Source of the DNA: a virus
Taxonomy: Duplodnaviria; Heunggongvirae; Uroviricota; Caudoviricetes
Length of the DNA stretch: 41,625 nt
Virus record (IMG/VR): IMGVR_UViG_2529293039_000011
Strand: one strand, 5' to 3'
Position 1 is the first letter of the stretch. Each line of letters begins with the position of its first letter. A model generated the notes under the pieces. The model ran no database searches. It saw nothing but the letters and a program-made list of their open reading frames with translations, and was not told the DNA's origin. The position numbers and the translations under genes are program-made. Shown here piece by piece: positions 5,256-10,875 of the stretch.

Positions 5256-5416
5256 ATCGCATTCAGATATTTGTTTTGATTCACTGACGGAGAAGAATTT
5301 CTCTTAAGCAATTCCTCTCTCGATGGCATTGGCTTTACGCGTTGGCGAATAATCATTTCTGCCGGAAGAATGCCGGGATTGTATGCAAGTCCTCTCATGG
5401 TAAATTCCTCAGTCAT
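5234..5416 (-). CDS. Possible small protein (60 aa), start overlapping the stop of the upstream gene
   Basis: ATG inside AATGACTGA overlap with preceding stop; fills the gap between 5409..5705 and 5255; no clear Shine-Dalgarno. Confidence 0.25.
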
Positions 5417-5705
5417 TACTGATAGCGCCATAGCGTGAGCGGTAATTACGCAGGCGCGGGTCGATATATTCAGGGAAGTGGGTATATGTGGCTTTGCGGA
5501 ATGGTCGGATTGATGTCTGGTAAATTCGCTCGCGTTCTTCTTTCTCTGCAAGCCATATACAGTGGCGAAATTCCTTTTCCTCTTTCGTTTCCTGCGGTAG
5601 AGACATTATTCGATCGTAGTTTTTTCTGAATTTATCCAGCACCTCCGATACGGAATTGCCGGAACAGCGGCGCGGGTCATCCGCACCATACAGAGGCGCT
5701 GGCAT
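5409..5705 (-). CDS. Hypothetical early protein (98 aa)
   Basis: Clean ORF directly downstream of ssb on the same strand, charged composition; no family recognised. Confidence 0.5.
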
Positions 5706-5718
5706 GATTTTCTCCTGA

Positions 5719-6225
5719 TTAAATTGCGTGAATAGCGTGACGAGGGAAGGGGAGAGTTACTGGTGCAAAGGGTATATCGTCGTCAAAATCCATCGGAGGT
5801 TCGTTGTGTTGTGCTGGTGATGATTGCTGCTGTGGCTTCTGTGATTGCCTGCTGGCTGCTTGTTGTTTGCTGTCGCCAATGCCGCCAAGCATTTGCATCA
5901 CGCCATTAATTCCGACATGAACCTCGGTTGTGTAACGGTCTTGCCCTGACTGGTCTTTCCACTTTCTGGTTCTCAGCATTCCCTCGAAATAAATCTGATC
6001 ACCTTTTTTCACATACTGCCCCACGACCTCAGCCAGTTTCCCGGATACAGCAACACGATGCCATTCAGTCAATTCCTTTTGCTCGCCAGTATTTTTATCT
6101 CGCCATTGTTCTGACGTGGCTATTGTCAGGTTAGCGAACGCTGTTCCTGATGGTGAGTATCGAACTTCCGGGTCTTGTCCTACCCGACCAAGGATAATCA
6201 CCTTATTTACGCCTCTGCTTGCCAT
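5719..6225 (-). CDS. ssb: Single-stranded DNA-binding protein (168 aa) with unusual 15-aa extension after the DDDIPF tip
   Basis: OB-fold N-terminus [44 protein letters not shown]..., Gln/Pro-rich linker and [11 protein letters not shown] motif; ORF continues [15 protein letters not shown]. Confidence 0.9.
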
Positions 6226-6933
6226 TTATGCTGCCTGTTTTAGTTCGTTAACTCTGATGTTCATTACCTGAACACATTTAGCCTGCGCCTCCTCGTTGCC
6301 AGCCATTAATTGCCAGTCACGCTGATAACGCTCGATGAGTTTTTTCTTGTCAGTTTCTGTCGCTGCATAATCGCTGAAGTCTTTCAGGATTTGTTCGCAG
6401 TCAACCGATGGAGATTTCTGGTTGGTATTTTCTGGTGATGGTTTGTTATCTGATGCTGGGATTGCCCATCCCGGCAGTGATGGAGGTAGCCAGTAAAATC
6501 CTGTTCCATCCTTCAGTTTTGCCCTGTGCCACCCCTGCTTTTTATCGAGAGATGTTTGTGCGAAACCTTCCTCAAGGTTATACAGATACCGACCGATTCC
6601 CCACTGAACGGCAGCGCGCTTCATTGCACCGGAACGACCGCCTTTGACAGCTTCTACCTGCGTGTTTTCAGCAGCATCCCATTTGGTTACCCATTCGGAA
6701 TCAATCCTGATTGATATGCCGCATTCAACGCCGCCGTTGTTGGGAATATCGCGGTATTCATTGCGCCATCCTGCTTTGCCGCAAACATCGTCCAGACGTT
6801 TCATGATTGCCCGGTTCGTGACATAAGCCAGCACCATAGCCCACACCTTGCCATCGCGTGTTTTACCGCTTTGCTGTATTCGCCATTCGATATCTTCAGG
6901 GCTGAATGGCTCATCGAATTTGTTCAAATCCAT
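6226..6933 (-). CDS. Rad52/Rad22-family single-strand annealing protein (235 aa)
   Basis: Conserved blocks KVWAMVLAYVTNRAIMKRLDDVCGKAGW and MKRAAVQWGIGRYLY typical of phage Rad52-like annealases; occupies the exo/bet slot. Confidence 0.75.
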   Translation of the reverse strand: MDLNKFDEPFSPEDIEWRIQQSGKTRDGKVWAMVLAYVTNRAIMKRLDDVCGKAGWRNEYRDIPNNGGVECGISIRIDSEWVTKWDAAENTQVEAVKGGRSGAMKRAAVQWGIGRYLYNLEEGFAQTSLDKKQGWHRAKLKDGTGFYWLPPSLPGWAIPASDNKPSPENTNQKSPSVDCEQILKDFSDYAATETDKKKLIERYQRDWQLMAGNEEAQAKCVQVMNIRVNELKQAA

Positions 6934-7339: not shown

Positions 7340-7459
7340 TAACGCCTCCAGTTGTTTCTTTGCTGCTCTGATTAATTGTTTAACTCGGCGTGATAATTCA
7401 GATTCGTGCGGGTAGAAAGCGGACATGACGCCGCTACCCGCGAGCTGAAAGTGCATCAT
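7325..7459 (-). CDS. cIII: cIII-like protein (about 45 aa); the track ORF 7325..7534 extends further upstream
   Basis: Start chosen at ATGATG preceded by AAGGAG; MMHFQLAGSGVMSAFYPHESELSRRVKQLIRAAKK resembles lambda cIII in its AG..GV...ESxL..R pattern. Confidence 0.55.
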   Translation of the reverse strand: MMHFQLAGSGVMSAFYPHESELSRRVKQLIRAAKKQLEALCAMK

Positions 7460-7534
7460 GGGTAACTCCTTATATTTGATTGCATAACGAAAACGCCTCG
7501 AGTGAAGCGTTATTGGTATGCGGTAAAGCCGCAC

Positions 7535-7903
7535 TCAGGCGGCCTTGATAGTCATATCATCTGAATCAAATATTCCTGATGTATCGATATCGGTAATTCT
7601 TATTCCTTCACTACCATCCATTGGAGGCCATCCTTCCTGACCATTTCCATCATCCCAGTCGAACTCACAAACAACACCATATGCATTTAAGTCTTTCGAA
7701 ATTGCTATAAGCAGAGCATGTTGCGCCAGCATGATTAATACAGCATTTAATACAGAGCCGTGTTTATTGAGTCGGTATTCAGAGTCTGACCAGAAATTAT
7801 TAATCTGGTGAAGTTTTTCCTCTGTCATTACGTCATGGTCGATTTCAATTTCTATTGATGCTTTCCAGTCGTAATCAATGATGTATTTTTTGATGTTTGA
7901 CAT
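7535..7903 (-). CDS. Ea10-like early protein (122 aa)
   Basis: Protein MSNIKKYIIDYDWKASIEIEIDHDVMTEEKLHQINNFWSDSEYRLNKHGSVLNAVL... matches my recollection of lambda Ea10. Confidence 0.85.
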   Translation of the reverse strand: MSNIKKYIIDYDWKASIEIEIDHDVMTEEKLHQINNFWSDSEYRLNKHGSVLNAVLIMLAQHALLIAISKDLNAYGVVCEFDWDDGNGQEGWPPMDGSEGIRITDIDTSGIFDSDDMTIKAA

Positions 7904-7921
7904 CTATTCATATCCTCATAG

Positions 7922-7950
7922 ATAAAAAATCGCCCTCACATTAGAGGGCA
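7922..7950 (-). terminator. Candidate intrinsic terminator downstream of the 156-aa gene in the pL operon
   Basis: Minus-strand hairpin GCCCTC-TAATGT-GAGGGC followed by GATTTTTTATC. Confidence 0.4.
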
Positions 7951-8053
7951 AAGAAGATTTCCAATAATCAGAACAAGTCGGCTCCTGTTTAGTTACGAGC
8001 GACATTGCTCCGTGTATTCACTCGTTGGAATGAATACACAGTGCTTATTCGTA

Positions 8054-8524
8054 CTAATAAAACACCCAATTTTCTGTTTCTTGGTTGTGTCCAAAGTTAT
8101 ATTCAATATCTGGTGTTGATGTATCAATATTCTTCATCCCATCAACAAGAGTTGATACAACAGCCAAATCTTGTTTGATTCTCATCAAATGGTATTTCTT
8201 TCGGCGCAATAAACTTTCAATGGCAAGTTTCTTCGTCGGGAATGCAAAAGATCTTTCTGCATTTTTTGCTACTTTCTTAATTGCATATCTATTTCTCCTT
8301 TGTTTCCATTCCTGTAACCACTGATTTGGTGCTGGTTTAAAATTAACAATCCAATGCGCAGGAACCAACCATGCATAATGCTCTGTCTGATGAAAAGCTA
8401 TATATTGAAGTGCGAATATTTTGATCCCATCTTCTTCAACTGTCGCCTGGAATCTCCAGAAAACAGGCATTCCATCATGTTCAGTTTCTGATTCAGGAAA
8501 AGGTACGCTCCATGATTTTGTCAT
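8054..8524 (-). CDS. Hypothetical protein (156 aa) in the ral/sieB slot between N and ea10
   Basis: Clean ORF with GAGGTG site upstream of the ATG; soluble, basic, Trp-rich; no family recognised. Confidence 0.6.
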   Translation of the reverse strand: MTKSWSVPFPESETEHDGMPVFWRFQATVEEDGIKIFALQYIAFHQTEHYAWLVPAHWIVNFKPAPNQWLQEWKQRRNRYAIKKVAKNAERSFAFPTKKLAIESLLRRKKYHLMRIKQDLAVVSTLVDGMKNIDTSTPDIEYNFGHNQETENWVFY

Positions 8525-8582
8525 ATCTCACCTCAAATAAGTGGTTTGCTGCCTAATTTCATTTTCTGGCGACCAACACAAG

Positions 8583-8855
8583 TCATCTTGCTGTCAGTTG
8601 TTTGGATTTCCGGTAGCCTGCCGCGTAAAGAGCTACGTTCGGAAGACAAGTTGAGCCTTCATATTTTCTGGTCAACGTTGTCAGTGTTATTACTTCTGCT
8701 CTCATTGCTGGTTTGCGCTTGCATTGCAAGACCACTCGAGAGGGGGTTGGTCTGTGTAGCTTGTCGGAGCTAATCGCCTCCTGACTTTGCAGGTTTGCGC
8801 GACGAGCTCTACGACGAGAAGCTGAGGTGCCTTTAAATTCTGTTTTTCTGGACAT
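8583..8855 (-). CDS. N: N-like transcription antitermination protein (about 90 aa); the track ORF extends upstream to 8939
   Basis: Start chosen at ATG preceded by GGGAGG; N-terminal arginine-rich motif MSRKTEFKGTSASRRRARRANLQ typical of N proteins; position downstream of nutL and pL. Confidence 0.65.
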   Translation of the reverse strand: MSRKTEFKGTSASRRRARRANLQSQEAISSDKLHRPTPSRVVLQCKRKPAMRAEVITLTTLTRKYEGSTCLPNVALYAAGYRKSKQLTAR

Positions 8856-8953
8856 AGATTCCTCCCGAATAAACTTTGGTGATGCAATCTCGAAGCTCCT
8901 CCTGAGACGGTTGCTTCGGCATTGCATCCCACAGCTCATGTGGTTGGGTGATC

Positions 8954-9000
8954 TGGCTTTTCAGCCACGTAGTCGAGAGTTCGACGTTGTTTAAAGAGCC
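8954..9000 (-). promoter_or_regulatory. nutL: boxA-like GGCTCTTTAAACAACG and boxB hairpin TGGC-TGAAAA-GCCA on the leftward transcript
   Basis: Near-duplicate of nutR at 11211..11256, with a compensatory base-pair swap in the boxB stem. Confidence 0.5.
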
Positions 9001-9029
9001 TGCCAGTCTGTTCCGTTTGGCTTCCAGCG

Positions 9030-9200
9030 TCCTGCTGACGGTTAAATAGTACGATATGTACTTTATTGGGTTAATACTATTTGTTCTAAAATAGGGTGAT
9101 TTTTTATAACACTTTGTATTTAATAGTGTTGTTTTTTAGCGTGGGTGTATCGCCTCGGCGATGTAAGGAGAGATCAGAATTGCGTGGTTTAGTGAGTTGT
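9030..9200 (-). promoter_or_regulatory. OL/pL region; palindrome AGTACGATATGTACT at 9048..9062 as candidate cI operator
   Basis: Palindrome shares the TACATAT/GTAC core with the OR candidate near 10948; lies between the immunity terminator and nutL; AT-rich. Confidence 0.35.
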
Positions 9201-9202
9201 AT

Positions 9203-10135
9203 CTATTTATTTTTCAATAAATACATTTGGTTATGTGTCTTTAGGTGGGGGCGTGAGGCAAAGAAAACCCGGCGCTGAGGCCGGGGTATGCATTTATGGT
9301 TTTTTTGGTCGTGCTTTGCTAGGGCTTTATGAGTTTTCTTAATGCTGCTTCTAACTTTCTGAATTTTTTCTTGGGAAAGTTTTATGTTTTCAGGGGCTGT
9401 TCCAGTGTTAGAAATCATTACATTGCGAACAGATCTCCCTACGGTCTCAGCAGCATTCTCTAGTTGAGACTGTCCCTTCAGGTTCTGGTTTCTGATTCTT
9501 GCTTCTGTCTGTGTAATTCTGAATATATTGGCCGCGAGCTCTTCGCTTCCCATGAAGTCAAGCATCGTTCCATCTTTTTTAGTTAGGCCTTTTCGAGCTT
9601 TCAACTGTGAGAGATTCATATTGTACATCCCACGGTAGCCCGCATTTTGAAATAGACCATAGTCGACTACTCCGTGTTTATGGGCTACATGACTGAGAGT
9701 TTTCTCTCTAGATGTAATCTCGCCACGCAAATAAACTCGATTAACTGCGTCATGGTTATGATATGTAGTGTGTATTTCTGCTGCGAGCCCAGCAAAATAA
9801 GCTTGTGCATTTGCAACTTTTTGATTGCTGATGTCACCATTCATTACAATCAGATAACAAGCGAAACGAGTTAATTTAAAGTCATTTTTCGCATTTTCTG
9901 AAGGCATCTGGATGAAGTTATCGTATACAGGGATATCGAGGCTCACACATACAGATGTAGCTTTGTTAATGGCTTTCAATATCTGATCCATGCCATTATA
10001 TCCAAGCATCATCGCTAAATCAGATGCAAACCAATAGGTAACACCGTTTTCTCTAGCGAAATCATCAAATGTTAACTGTGATGTGTCATCGAAAACAGTA
10101 ATTTGCCTACTCATATCACACCCGAACTTACTCAT
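9203..10135 (-). CDS. Hypothetical protein (310 aa) in the rexAB position, with a weak Bro-N/KilA-N-like N-terminal signature
   Basis: ATG preceded by AAGGGA; motif VTYWFASDLAMMLGY resembles the Bro-N W-F-x-A-x-D-x-x-x-x-L-G-Y signature; immediately downstream of cI on the same strand. Confidence 0.6.
   Translation of the reverse strand: MSKFGCDMSRQITVFDDTSQLTFDDFARENGVTYWFASDLAMMLGYNGMDQILKAINKATSVCVSLDIPVYDNFIQMPSENAKNDFKLTRFACYLIVMNGDISNQKVANAQAYFAGLAAEIHTTYHNHDAVNRVYLRGEITSREKTLSHVAHKHGVVDYGLFQNAGYRGMYNMNLSQLKARKGLTKKDGTMLDFMGSEELAANIFRITQTEARIRNQNLKGQSQLENAAETVGRSVRNVMISNTGTAPENIKLSQEKIQKVRSSIKKTHKALAKHDQKNHKCIPRPQRRVFFASRPHLKTHNQMYLLKNK
9259..9285 (-). terminator. Candidate intrinsic terminator of the cI-side immunity transcript, embedded in the last codons of the 310-aa ORF
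   Basis: Minus-strand hairpin CCCGGC-CTCAGC-GCCGGG followed by TTTTCTTTG; T-run also on the plus side. Confidence 0.45.
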
Positions 10136-10215
10136 CGATTTTCCCTTATATTAATATAATGTGGATAGTTTGTCGCCAACTCGCTAAAGTTATTCATTAT
10201 GAGGTTTGCCATCCA

Positions 10216-10875
10216 TCACCCAAACGTCTCTTCAGGCCACTGACTAGCGATAACTTTCCCCACAACGGAACAACTCTCATTGCATGGGATCATTGGGTAT
10301 TGTGGATTTAGTGGCTGTAGAAACACCTGACCGCTATCCCTGATCAGTTTCTTGAAGGTAAATTCATCACCACCAAGTCTGGCTATGCAGAAATCGCCGG
10401 GCTCAACAGCTTGCTCTGGGTCAACCAGAATTAACATCCCGTCAGGAAAACTAGGTTTGGAACCTGTTGGGGCGGTCATTGAGTTACCTTCAACCTCAAG
10501 CCAGAATGCAGAGTCACTGGCTTTTTTGGTTGTGCTTACCAATCTCTCCGCATCGCCTTTGGTAAAGGTTCTGAGTTCTGGAGAGAACATCCCAGCCTGA
10601 ACATGAGAAAAAACAGGGTACTCATATTGTTTTTTAACTGGGGCCGATGAGTATTCGCCAACAGGTGAAAATGTCCCGTCGTGGTTGAATGATATGTTAT
10701 CAATACCAAGGTATTTAAACACCACACCAATATCACTAAGAGATGGATGACGAGATCCGCGCAACCAGTGTCCAATCCCACCCTGCGTCATACCTAGCTC
10801 TTCGGCTAACTTCTCTTGAGTTATGCCGAGCTCTTTCATTCTGGATCTAGCCAGTTCATACCATTTCATTTTCAT
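10216..10875 (-). CDS. cI: cI-type repressor with LexA-like S24 autocleavage domain (about 220 aa; the track ORF extends to 11037)
   Basis: N-terminal HTH ([28 protein letters not shown]), C-terminal S24 domain with GNSM serine and FKKL lysine; start at MKMKW by position; divergent from cro. Confidence 0.85.

Follow-up and report, generated by a model that had tools for sequence, protein, structure and literature searches.

ORF156, an Exchangeable pL-Operon Cassette between N and ea10 of Lambdoid Phages, Encodes an Uncharacterized, Phage-Restricted Protein Family

The gene at the locus

The IMG/VR record IMGVR_UViG_2529293039_000011 (Duplodnaviria; Heunggongvirae; Uroviricota; Caudoviricetes) is a stretch of viral DNA of 41,625 nucleotides, referred to here in its entirety as the window. 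On its minus strand, at positions 8054 to 8524, within the pL operon and between the antitermination gene N and ea10, lies an ATG-initiated open reading frame (ORF) of 156 codons, ORF156, with a product of 18.6 kDa and a pI of 9.1. A first-pass annotation, made from the sequence alone, had described here a 156-residue gene with a ribosome-binding site, and a genuine gene is confirmed, with the Shine-Dalgarno sequence GAGGTGA, as read from the sequence, 3 nt ahead of the ATG (Table 1). The placement between N and ea10 given in that annotation was borne out by an N_peptide family gene upstream and a DUF2528 gene downstream. The product is also soluble, as had been proposed, with a grand average of hydropathy (GRAVY) of -0.59, a top 19-residue Kyte-Doolittle window of 0.56, and no transmembrane segment.

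ORF156 is an already catalogued gene and not a new one, having been annotated since 1999 and always as hypothetical. It is the gene known as L0079 in the Shiga toxin 2 (Stx2) phage 933W, with 98.7% nucleotide and 100% amino acid identity, as WP_000167595.1, and as PHROG 1636, whose profile it matches at an E value of 2.7e-112, with residues 1-156 aligned to profile positions 1-156 (function: hypothetical). The window segment is 100% identical to a prophage at ~1.05 Mb of enteropathogenic Escherichia coli E2348/69, in which the gene is annotated as E2348C_RS05265 (WP_000167595.1, "hypothetical protein"). The earlier remark that the sequence matched nothing recognizable thus fails as to identity, since the gene is L0079 and PHROG 1636, and stands in that all copies are hypothetical. 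The matches to 933W L0079 and other PHROG 1636 copies are to the same gene and supply a name but no mechanism, and no mention of L0079, WP_000167595, or PHROG 1636 was found in the literature.

Coding constraint and distribution

ORF156 is a real, strongly constrained protein-coding gene and more than a chance ORF, because its protein is nearly constant despite change in the DNA, full-length homologues exist, and its structure is predicted with confidence. Most phage copies differ by ~1.3% at the DNA level, and protein identity is at least 99% in 74 of 88 phage records; among the matches listed, every one with ~98.7% DNA identity, 933W included, encodes the identical protein. Full-length homologues with 55 to 85% identity and 40 invariant residues occur in Escherichia, Pectobacterium, Brenneria, Rosenbergiella, Cronobacter, and Symbiopectobacterium. 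A pN/pS estimate over 80 IMG/VR loci (21 synonymous and 0 nonsynonymous changes) was set aside, as those loci had been preselected for 100% protein identity.

The gene is present, always as hypothetical, in 80 phage records, including H-19B, BP-4795, Min27, Stx2 phage 86, the P22-like phage vB_EcoP-683R2, and several BASEL temperate phages. Across the Stx phages, vB_EcoP-683R2, and the BASEL phages, it retains 98.7 to 99.4% nucleotide and 100% protein identity and the same position after N. With the ORF alone as the query, 598 of the 5426 complete E. coli genomes proved to be carriers, with 834 sites in all and as many as four in a single genome; a higher prevalence of 2240 genomes was dropped, as that query had included flanks common to many more prophages. 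ORF156 is therefore not an oddity of one prophage but a gene of ~11% of sequenced E. coli and of archetypal Stx phages such as 933W and H-19B.

Beyond these close copies, an exhaustive hidden Markov model (HMM) search of 1.8 billion representative proteins returned 87 relatives, mostly of 130 to 160 aa, with PHROG 13631 and PHROG 25384 among the distant ones. A related-locus search in species-representative genomes gave only seven ORF156 loci, and a plasmid search gave 11 matching records, all non-mobilizable. It is securely established that the ORF156 family is uncharacterized and phage restricted.

The N-ea10 interval as a site of cassette exchange

The first-pass annotation had placed ORF156 in the slot that holds ral and sieB in lambda, and this holds to the nucleotide: homology to the 3' end of lambda N bounds the slot on the left, and the lambda ral-ea10 intergenic region bounds it on the right. 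On the left, the 51 nt preceding the ribosome-binding site encode MTCVGRQKMKLGSKPLI, which is homologous to the lambda N C terminus, ITCSGRQKIKGKSIPLI; BLASTP of lambda N residues 117-133 against the window ORF at 8533..8649 gave an E value of 2e-5. Many other N alleles carry the same DNA as an in-frame N end, ...VTCVGRQKMKLGSKPLI, 9 nt before the ORF156 ATG. In the window, N is of the 933W type and stops at 8583, out of frame with the lambda-N-like C-terminal sequence. Since the same DNA is out of frame here and an in-frame N end elsewhere, the 3' end of N appears from its sequence to act as a recombination junction. An analysis of the phage L genome reported that P22-like gp24 (N) proteins diverge in their C-terminal 25 to 35 residues and that this operon variably gains and loses sieB and ral (bioRxiv 10.1101/2020.10.05.325894), both of which are consistent with the N-end junction described here.

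On the right, the sequence from ~12 nt past the ORF156 stop codon, through the terminator, to the start of ea10 is ~97% identical to the lambda ral-ea10 intergenic region. Between these same two junctions lambda carries sieB and ral, and Sakai prophage Sp15 carries a sieB-like gene. Ral and SieB thus share with ORF156 an identical pL-operon interval with the same bounds, and they are likewise accessory and freely exchanged among lambdoid phages. In Sakai Sp5, identical flanks extend through the ATG on one side and resume at the 3' untranslated region (UTR) hairpin on the other, so that the Shine-Dalgarno sequence and ATG of ORF156 are kept although the coding sequence is that of a different gene, ECs1180 (8721-8972 of locus L094; ORF21 of Mondal et al. 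2016; PHROG 2471). This allelic cassette is also an orphan lacking a conserved domain, but its product is an unrelated acidic protein of 83 aa. Deletion of ECs1180 from an Sp5 lysogen was reported to be impossible (Mondal et al. 2016; PMC5155283), which hints that some cassettes of this slot may matter in the prophage state.

Exchange at this position is also apparent from the partners of ORF156. Over 80 IMG/VR loci with the gene, homology to the window breaks 16 to 124 nt upstream of the ATG, and downstream breakpoints lie 8, ~105, or ~130 or more nt past the stop codon. Upstream partners include at least four N/Nun types, Ral, a Cys-rich 62-aa protein, a 74-aa protein, membrane proteins, and Nmad5, while downstream partners are ea10, cIII, P22 gp17 (PF17420), a charged 322-aa protein, and a 98-aa protein. 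In HK022-like prophages (IMG/VR L054, L049, L082, and L154), a Nun-like termination/exclusion protein (PHROG 5632) precedes ORF156 with a spacer of 132 to 134 nt. A Nun-like protein thus stands in the place of N, and therefore the cassette is not tied to an antiterminating N.

We surveyed slot occupancy at 62 IMG/VR loci with the conserved 3' flank in common, scanning 1.3 kb upstream and allowing more than one occupant per locus. Ral was found at 24 loci and ORF156 at 11, followed by Nmad5 (9 loci), SieB (8), the 62-aa protein (7), the 98-aa protein (6), a membrane protein (5), the 74-aa protein (3), and ECs1180 (2); at 11 loci none was recognized. The N-ea10 interval is thus a cassette-exchange site, with ORF156 as one of at least eight alternative occupants. 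The third commonest occupant, Nmad5, is a protein of 207 aa (PF18757, nucleotide-modification-associated domain 5; for example, in IMG/VR L111 and L011), and its gene sometimes lies directly upstream of ORF156.

The survey bears on one specific function, restriction alleviation analogous to that of Ral and Lar, by modulation of type I restriction-modification, which was the first suggestion that the first-pass annotation drew from position. No occupant is commoner just upstream of the 3' flank than Ral and ORF156, and the two were never found together (0 of 62 loci versus 4.3 expected; hypergeometric p of ~0.002, uncorrected for relatedness, the loci being closely related E. coli prophages). 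Distant homologues of ORF156 also lie near Lar and orphan methyltransferases. However, such mutual exclusion is to be expected of any two cassettes that are alleles at one site, the sampled loci are not independent, and in phage phi296 the tandem order N, 74-aa ORF, ral, ORF156 places both genes side by side. Nor is there similarity between the proteins: lambda Ral has 66 aa against the 156 aa of ORF156, and BLASTP gave an E value of 24. This role, a subcase of the counter-defense reading discussed below, is in our judgment very doubtful.

Probable expression from the pL operon

ORF156 is probably cotranscribed with N from pL, which would make it an immediate-early gene once the phage infects or is induced: no separate promoter was detected for it, and transcription from pL would meet the first predicted terminator only past the gene. 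A simple consensus search found no sigma-70-like promoter on the minus strand between N and ORF156. The complete list of minus-strand terminators predicted in 7400..10400 comprises three, of which one closes the cI-side transcript upstream of pL, one follows ORF156, and one lies downstream of ea10 (Table 1). The second of these is a hairpin with a U-tract and closely matches the intrinsic terminator that the first-pass annotation had placed at 7922..7950. Upstream, a nutL-like site combines a boxA-like sequence, GCTCTTTAAACAA, with a boxB-like hairpin, GTCGAACTCTCGAC; the former resembles what we take to be the E. coli rrn boxA consensus, TGCTCTTTAACAA. The boxA and boxB assignment presumes such consensus sequences, and the site would mark the start of the pL transcript carrying N and ORF156. 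The pL-nutL-N-ORF156 transcript would stop at the hairpin after ORF156 unless N acts, and ORF156 would be silent in a repressed prophage.

This arrangement bears on the term "moron," which the first-pass annotation had applied to the gene. A moron, as defined by Hendrix and Juhala, is an autonomous unit with its own promoter and its own terminator, inserted between backbone genes. No promoter was detected here, and the terminator and 3' UTR are backbone common to lambda and Sp5, so the term does not quite hold; ORF156 is an exchangeable cassette, not a classical moron.

The 3' UTR of ORF156 is itself structured, with a folding energy of -47.9 kcal/mol (z = -5.3 versus shuffles). The region 7923..8042 of the minus strand, with the terminator at its end, is retained whether the cassette ahead of it is 933W L0079, Sp5 ECs1180, or lambda ral, and it matched no Rfam family. 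Its conservation suggests that it may have a function beyond termination, for example as a processing site or a 3'-UTR-derived RNA. No Rfam small RNA (sRNA) was found in or near ORF156 at gathering thresholds, apart from a chance match to the S15 leader (E = 0.44), and the AgvB/AsxR and Pas sRNAs were rejected as RNAs of this locus, as they map elsewhere (the PR' moron site and structural-gene regions).

Expression bears directly on the possibility that ORF156 is a superinfection-exclusion or abortive-infection protein, a SieB stand-in expressed in the lysogen and protective against other phages; exclusion was the other function that the first-pass annotation suggested from position. The gene fills the interval that houses sieB in lambda and Sp15, E. 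coli prophages often contain it, with as many as four copies in one genome, and the neighboring cI-N interval holds a candidate defense gene, PDC-S13, so the prophage invests in defense. The crude sigma-70 consensus scan, however, detected no upstream promoter on the coding strand. In addition, SieB is a membrane protein of ~190 aa, whereas ORF156 is soluble, and the best BLASTP match to lambda and P22 SieB (E = 0.21 over 14 residues) amounts to no similarity; the annotation of lambda also puts sieB on the other strand. The PADLOC models gave no match for any of 72 family members, and structural relatives are found in apparently virulent phages and in early operons, where protection of a lysogen makes little sense. 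We regard an exclusion role as quite improbable.

A second possibility is that ORF156 regulates the phage's own development, as a small basic DNA- or RNA-binding protein that works with N, cIII, and Kil, and not against host immunity, to tune early transcription, RNA stability, or the choice between lysis and lysogeny. The gene is always inside the pL operon, with cIII, Kil, and Xis among the regulators around it, and its start 9 nt past the N stop in many alleles suggests translational coupling; the conserved basic core described below would also suit such a regulator. Unexpected for a core regulator is that the phage family as a whole can dispense with ORF156, as lambda, Sp5, and Sp15 do without it and carry unrelated genes instead, and its occurrence with at least four unrelated N/Nun types argues against a specific partnership with N. 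We consider this reading unlikely, yet less so than the other alternatives to the counter-defense reading.

Table 1. Features of the window in and around the slot occupied by ORF156
Feature	Position	Strand	Evidence or remark
ORF156 (156 aa, 18.6 kDa, pI 9.1)	8054..8524	-	ATG-initiated ORF; 933W L0079 / WP_000167595.1 / PHROG 1636
Shine-Dalgarno GAGGTGA of ORF156	8534..8528	-	3 nt before ATG at 8524..8522; read from sequence
Left slot junction	8536..8586	-	homologous to C-terminal 17 codons of lambda N; out of frame with 933W-type N of the window
N antitermination gene (90 aa, 933W type)	8583..8855	-	Pfam PF25694 N_peptide, E = 1e-31; RefSeq coding sequence of 273 nt
nutL-like site	8972..8999	-	boxA-like sequence, then boxB-like hairpin; hairpin found on + strand at 8972..8985
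Structured 3' UTR	7952..8053	-	hairpins 8039..8012 and 8011..7970; conserved backbone from ~8042 downstream
Intrinsic terminator, 8-bp stem and U-tract	7922..7951 (hairpin 7951..7930)	-	first predicted after pL/N; same element in lambda upstream of ea10
ea10 (DUF2528), right side of slot	7535..7903	-	Pfam PF10800, E = 1.1e-46
Terminator downstream of ea10	7511..7492	-	predicted
Terminator of cI-side transcript	9285..9268	-	predicted; upstream of pL
Bro-N/DinD-like protein (310 aa)	9203..10135	-	PADLOC PDC-S13, E = 5.8e-86
Recombination module	5409..6933	-	not lambda Red
Rad52/Rad22-family annealing protein	6226..6933	-	part of recombination module
Phage single-stranded DNA-binding protein	5719..6225	-	part of recombination module
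P22 Abc2-like anti-RecBCD protein	5409..5705	-	part of recombination module

Predicted structure and its relatives

The ORF156 protein lacks cysteine, has seven tryptophans, and contains no hydrophobic segment. Most of the 87 relatives share the pattern hhYR..G...h.hhET....K(I/V)xK..SRFAFxTKxxAxxxLxxRKxxQLxHLKRxL. Among 72 family members, positions R24, G33, T47, K83, K84, K87, A101, and K109 are conserved, of which R24, K83, K84, K87, and K109 are basic, and the equivalent of residues 81-130 carries a mean net charge of +7.0 (standard deviation, 1.7), with both termini acidic.

An AlphaFold2 model built on a 72-sequence alignment reached a mean predicted local distance difference test score (pLDDT) of 95.7 and a predicted template modeling score (pTM) of 0.83. 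An earlier prediction on 20 close homologues had been poor (pLDDT, 59.5), and it was the distant homologues from the HMM search that made the model usable. The predicted fold consists of three long beta-strands (residues 19-30, 33-46, and 50-55), two short helices, a short strand (83-86), and a helix of 33 residues (98-130), followed by a predicted ordered C-terminal tail that carries a conserved NFGHNxETExWxF motif. Along the long helix (98-130) runs a heptad-like stripe of hydrophobic residues. A fold search of the PDB found no solved structure that matches the modeled combination of beta-sheet and long helix. The nearest hits, all weak, were SH3-like, Tudor, PWWP, and chromo-barrel domains (for example, Shuguo PWWP, 6kco; MRG15 chromo barrel, 2f5k), in which, as in the model, a helix comes after a small beta-barrel or sheet; several of these domains bind nucleic acids.

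In BFVD, structural relatives are uncharacterized proteins of diverse phages, some of which we take, from their names, to be N4-like virulent phages. Domain fusions were also considered as a clue. No informative fusion was found among the relatives of ORF156; the candidates P0066 and P0080 were repetitive or spurious, and P0051 adds only a Cys-rich N terminus.

The genomic contexts of relatives are varied. In Salmonella phage NX263, a divergent early operon opens with the homologue (64% identity), and in Vibrio phage PvVp04 the homologue comes second in an early operon. The homologues of Cronobacter and of a metagenomic prophage directly follow N. Elsewhere it lies in an accessory array between orphan DNA methyltransferases and the integrase (a Marinobacterium prophage and Pseudomonas phage Medea1) or two genes past a Lar restriction-alleviation gene (a metagenomic phage), and in Pectobacterium and Brenneria a close homologue is the last gene before xis-int rather than a neighbor of N. 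These contexts fit an early accessory gene, often near anti-restriction functions, the regions being heterogeneous and the sample small.

Relatives in apparently virulent phages, together with the inferred immediate-early position, would also suit a host-takeover factor, that is, an early lytic inhibitor of a host housekeeping component (transcription, replication, RNA turnover, or division) that resembles Kil or Gam and is not directed at immunity. Kil, Gam/Abc2, and cIII belong to the same operon, and the segregation of charge along the protein is typical of small protein-binding inhibitors. Yet no similarity was found to solved phage inhibitors of RNA polymerase, Rho, RecBCD, or FtsZ, and the presence of an intact and identical gene in hundreds of lysogens fits tight repression but gives no positive support. 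A host-takeover role seems improbable to us, somewhat less so than an exclusion role.

A tentative role in conflict with the host or with other phages

The reading that we favor, tentatively and as possible rather than probable, is that ORF156 is an accessory lytic-cycle factor in conflict between phage and host or between phages, acting in counter-defense or counter-exclusion on nucleic acid or on an acidic protein. It would bind such a target through its basic beta-hairpin/helix surface. We favor this role because of the likely immediate-early timing, the apparent lack of expression in the lysogen, the relatives in early operons, apparently including those of virulent phages, and the slot-mates that are conflict genes, namely, Ral, SieB, Nun, P22 gp17, and Nmad5. 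A further proposal, somewhat more doubtful, is that ORF156 is the founder of a new immediate-early family, with a fold absent from the PDB, that serves counter-defense or targets nucleic acid or RNA polymerase, with distant relatives in the early operons of phages of Proteobacteria and other groups, and whose target would be a host or prophage immunity function that lambdoid phages are not so far known to inhibit.

Several observations weigh against the conflict-factor role. No model of Pfam, NCBIfam, or PADLOC matches ORF156 or any of the 72 family members, so that no known anti-defense, defense, or DNA- or RNA-binding family is recognized. Searches of the PDB by sequence, with the single query and with the profile, gave no match, and the PDB fold search revealed no solved anti-defense protein that shares the ORF156 fold. 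Anti-defense genes cluster in the leading regions of conjugative plasmids, and none of the 11 plasmid matches placed ORF156 in such a region. A published DefenseFinder scan of eight isolated enterohemorrhagic E. coli phages (2025), which included the carriers phi296, phi315, and phi345, reported only methyltransferases, Ral, and Gam as anti-defense genes (PMC12502783), and its anti-defense models thus did not flag ORF156 in those eight phages. The joint presence of Ral and ORF156 in phi296 means that the two are not strict functional alternatives. Guilt by position is in any case weak here, because the same slot holds both defense (SieB) and anti-defense (Ral) genes. As to timing, weak or non-sigma-70 promoters can escape a simple consensus scan, Rho-dependent terminators are not predictable, and an immediate-early position is not universal, because the Pectobacterium and Brenneria homologues adjoin xis-int.

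The remaining family searches were likewise uninformative as to function. Matches in PHROGs were to families of unknown function only, and matches to Tmem26, zf-H2C2, and Cas1_II were spurious; in PADLOC-DB 2.0, the query gave only the spurious Cas1_II match (E = 0.018), and 0 of 72 family members matched at E values of 0.001 or below. No homology of ORF156 to a housekeeping phage protein emerged from the searches. Candidate identifications in the literature were rejected as well: Sakai ECs1184 and ECs1762, from an RNA-binding-proteome study, are different genes, and apparently none of the proteins from Phi24B lysogen cultures is ORF156, given mismatches in mass or pI and the location of P2 and P3 downstream of cI.

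What the analysis adds is a precisely delimited exchange site after N, a high-confidence structural model, and an alignment of a 72-member superfamily. These make ORF156 a well-delimited and cheap candidate for anti-defense and exclusion screens and the N-ea10 junction a place to mine further accessory genes. If it is true that ORF156 neutralizes a host immune system, this would matter for the range of hosts that Stx-converting phages infect and for how these phages spread.

Neighboring genes

Between cI and pL/N, where lambda has rexAB, the window encodes a Bro-N/DinD-like protein of 310 aa, with the terminator of the cI-side transcript at 9285..9268. Besides its PADLOC match to PDC-S13, it scores below the cutoff of the NCBIfam DinD model (197 versus 242 bits). 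From its sequence, it is likely a prophage-expressed defense candidate. Elsewhere in the window, the recombination module is not lambda Red but consists of a Rad52/Rad22-family annealing protein, a phage single-stranded DNA-binding protein, and a P22 Abc2-like anti-RecBCD protein.

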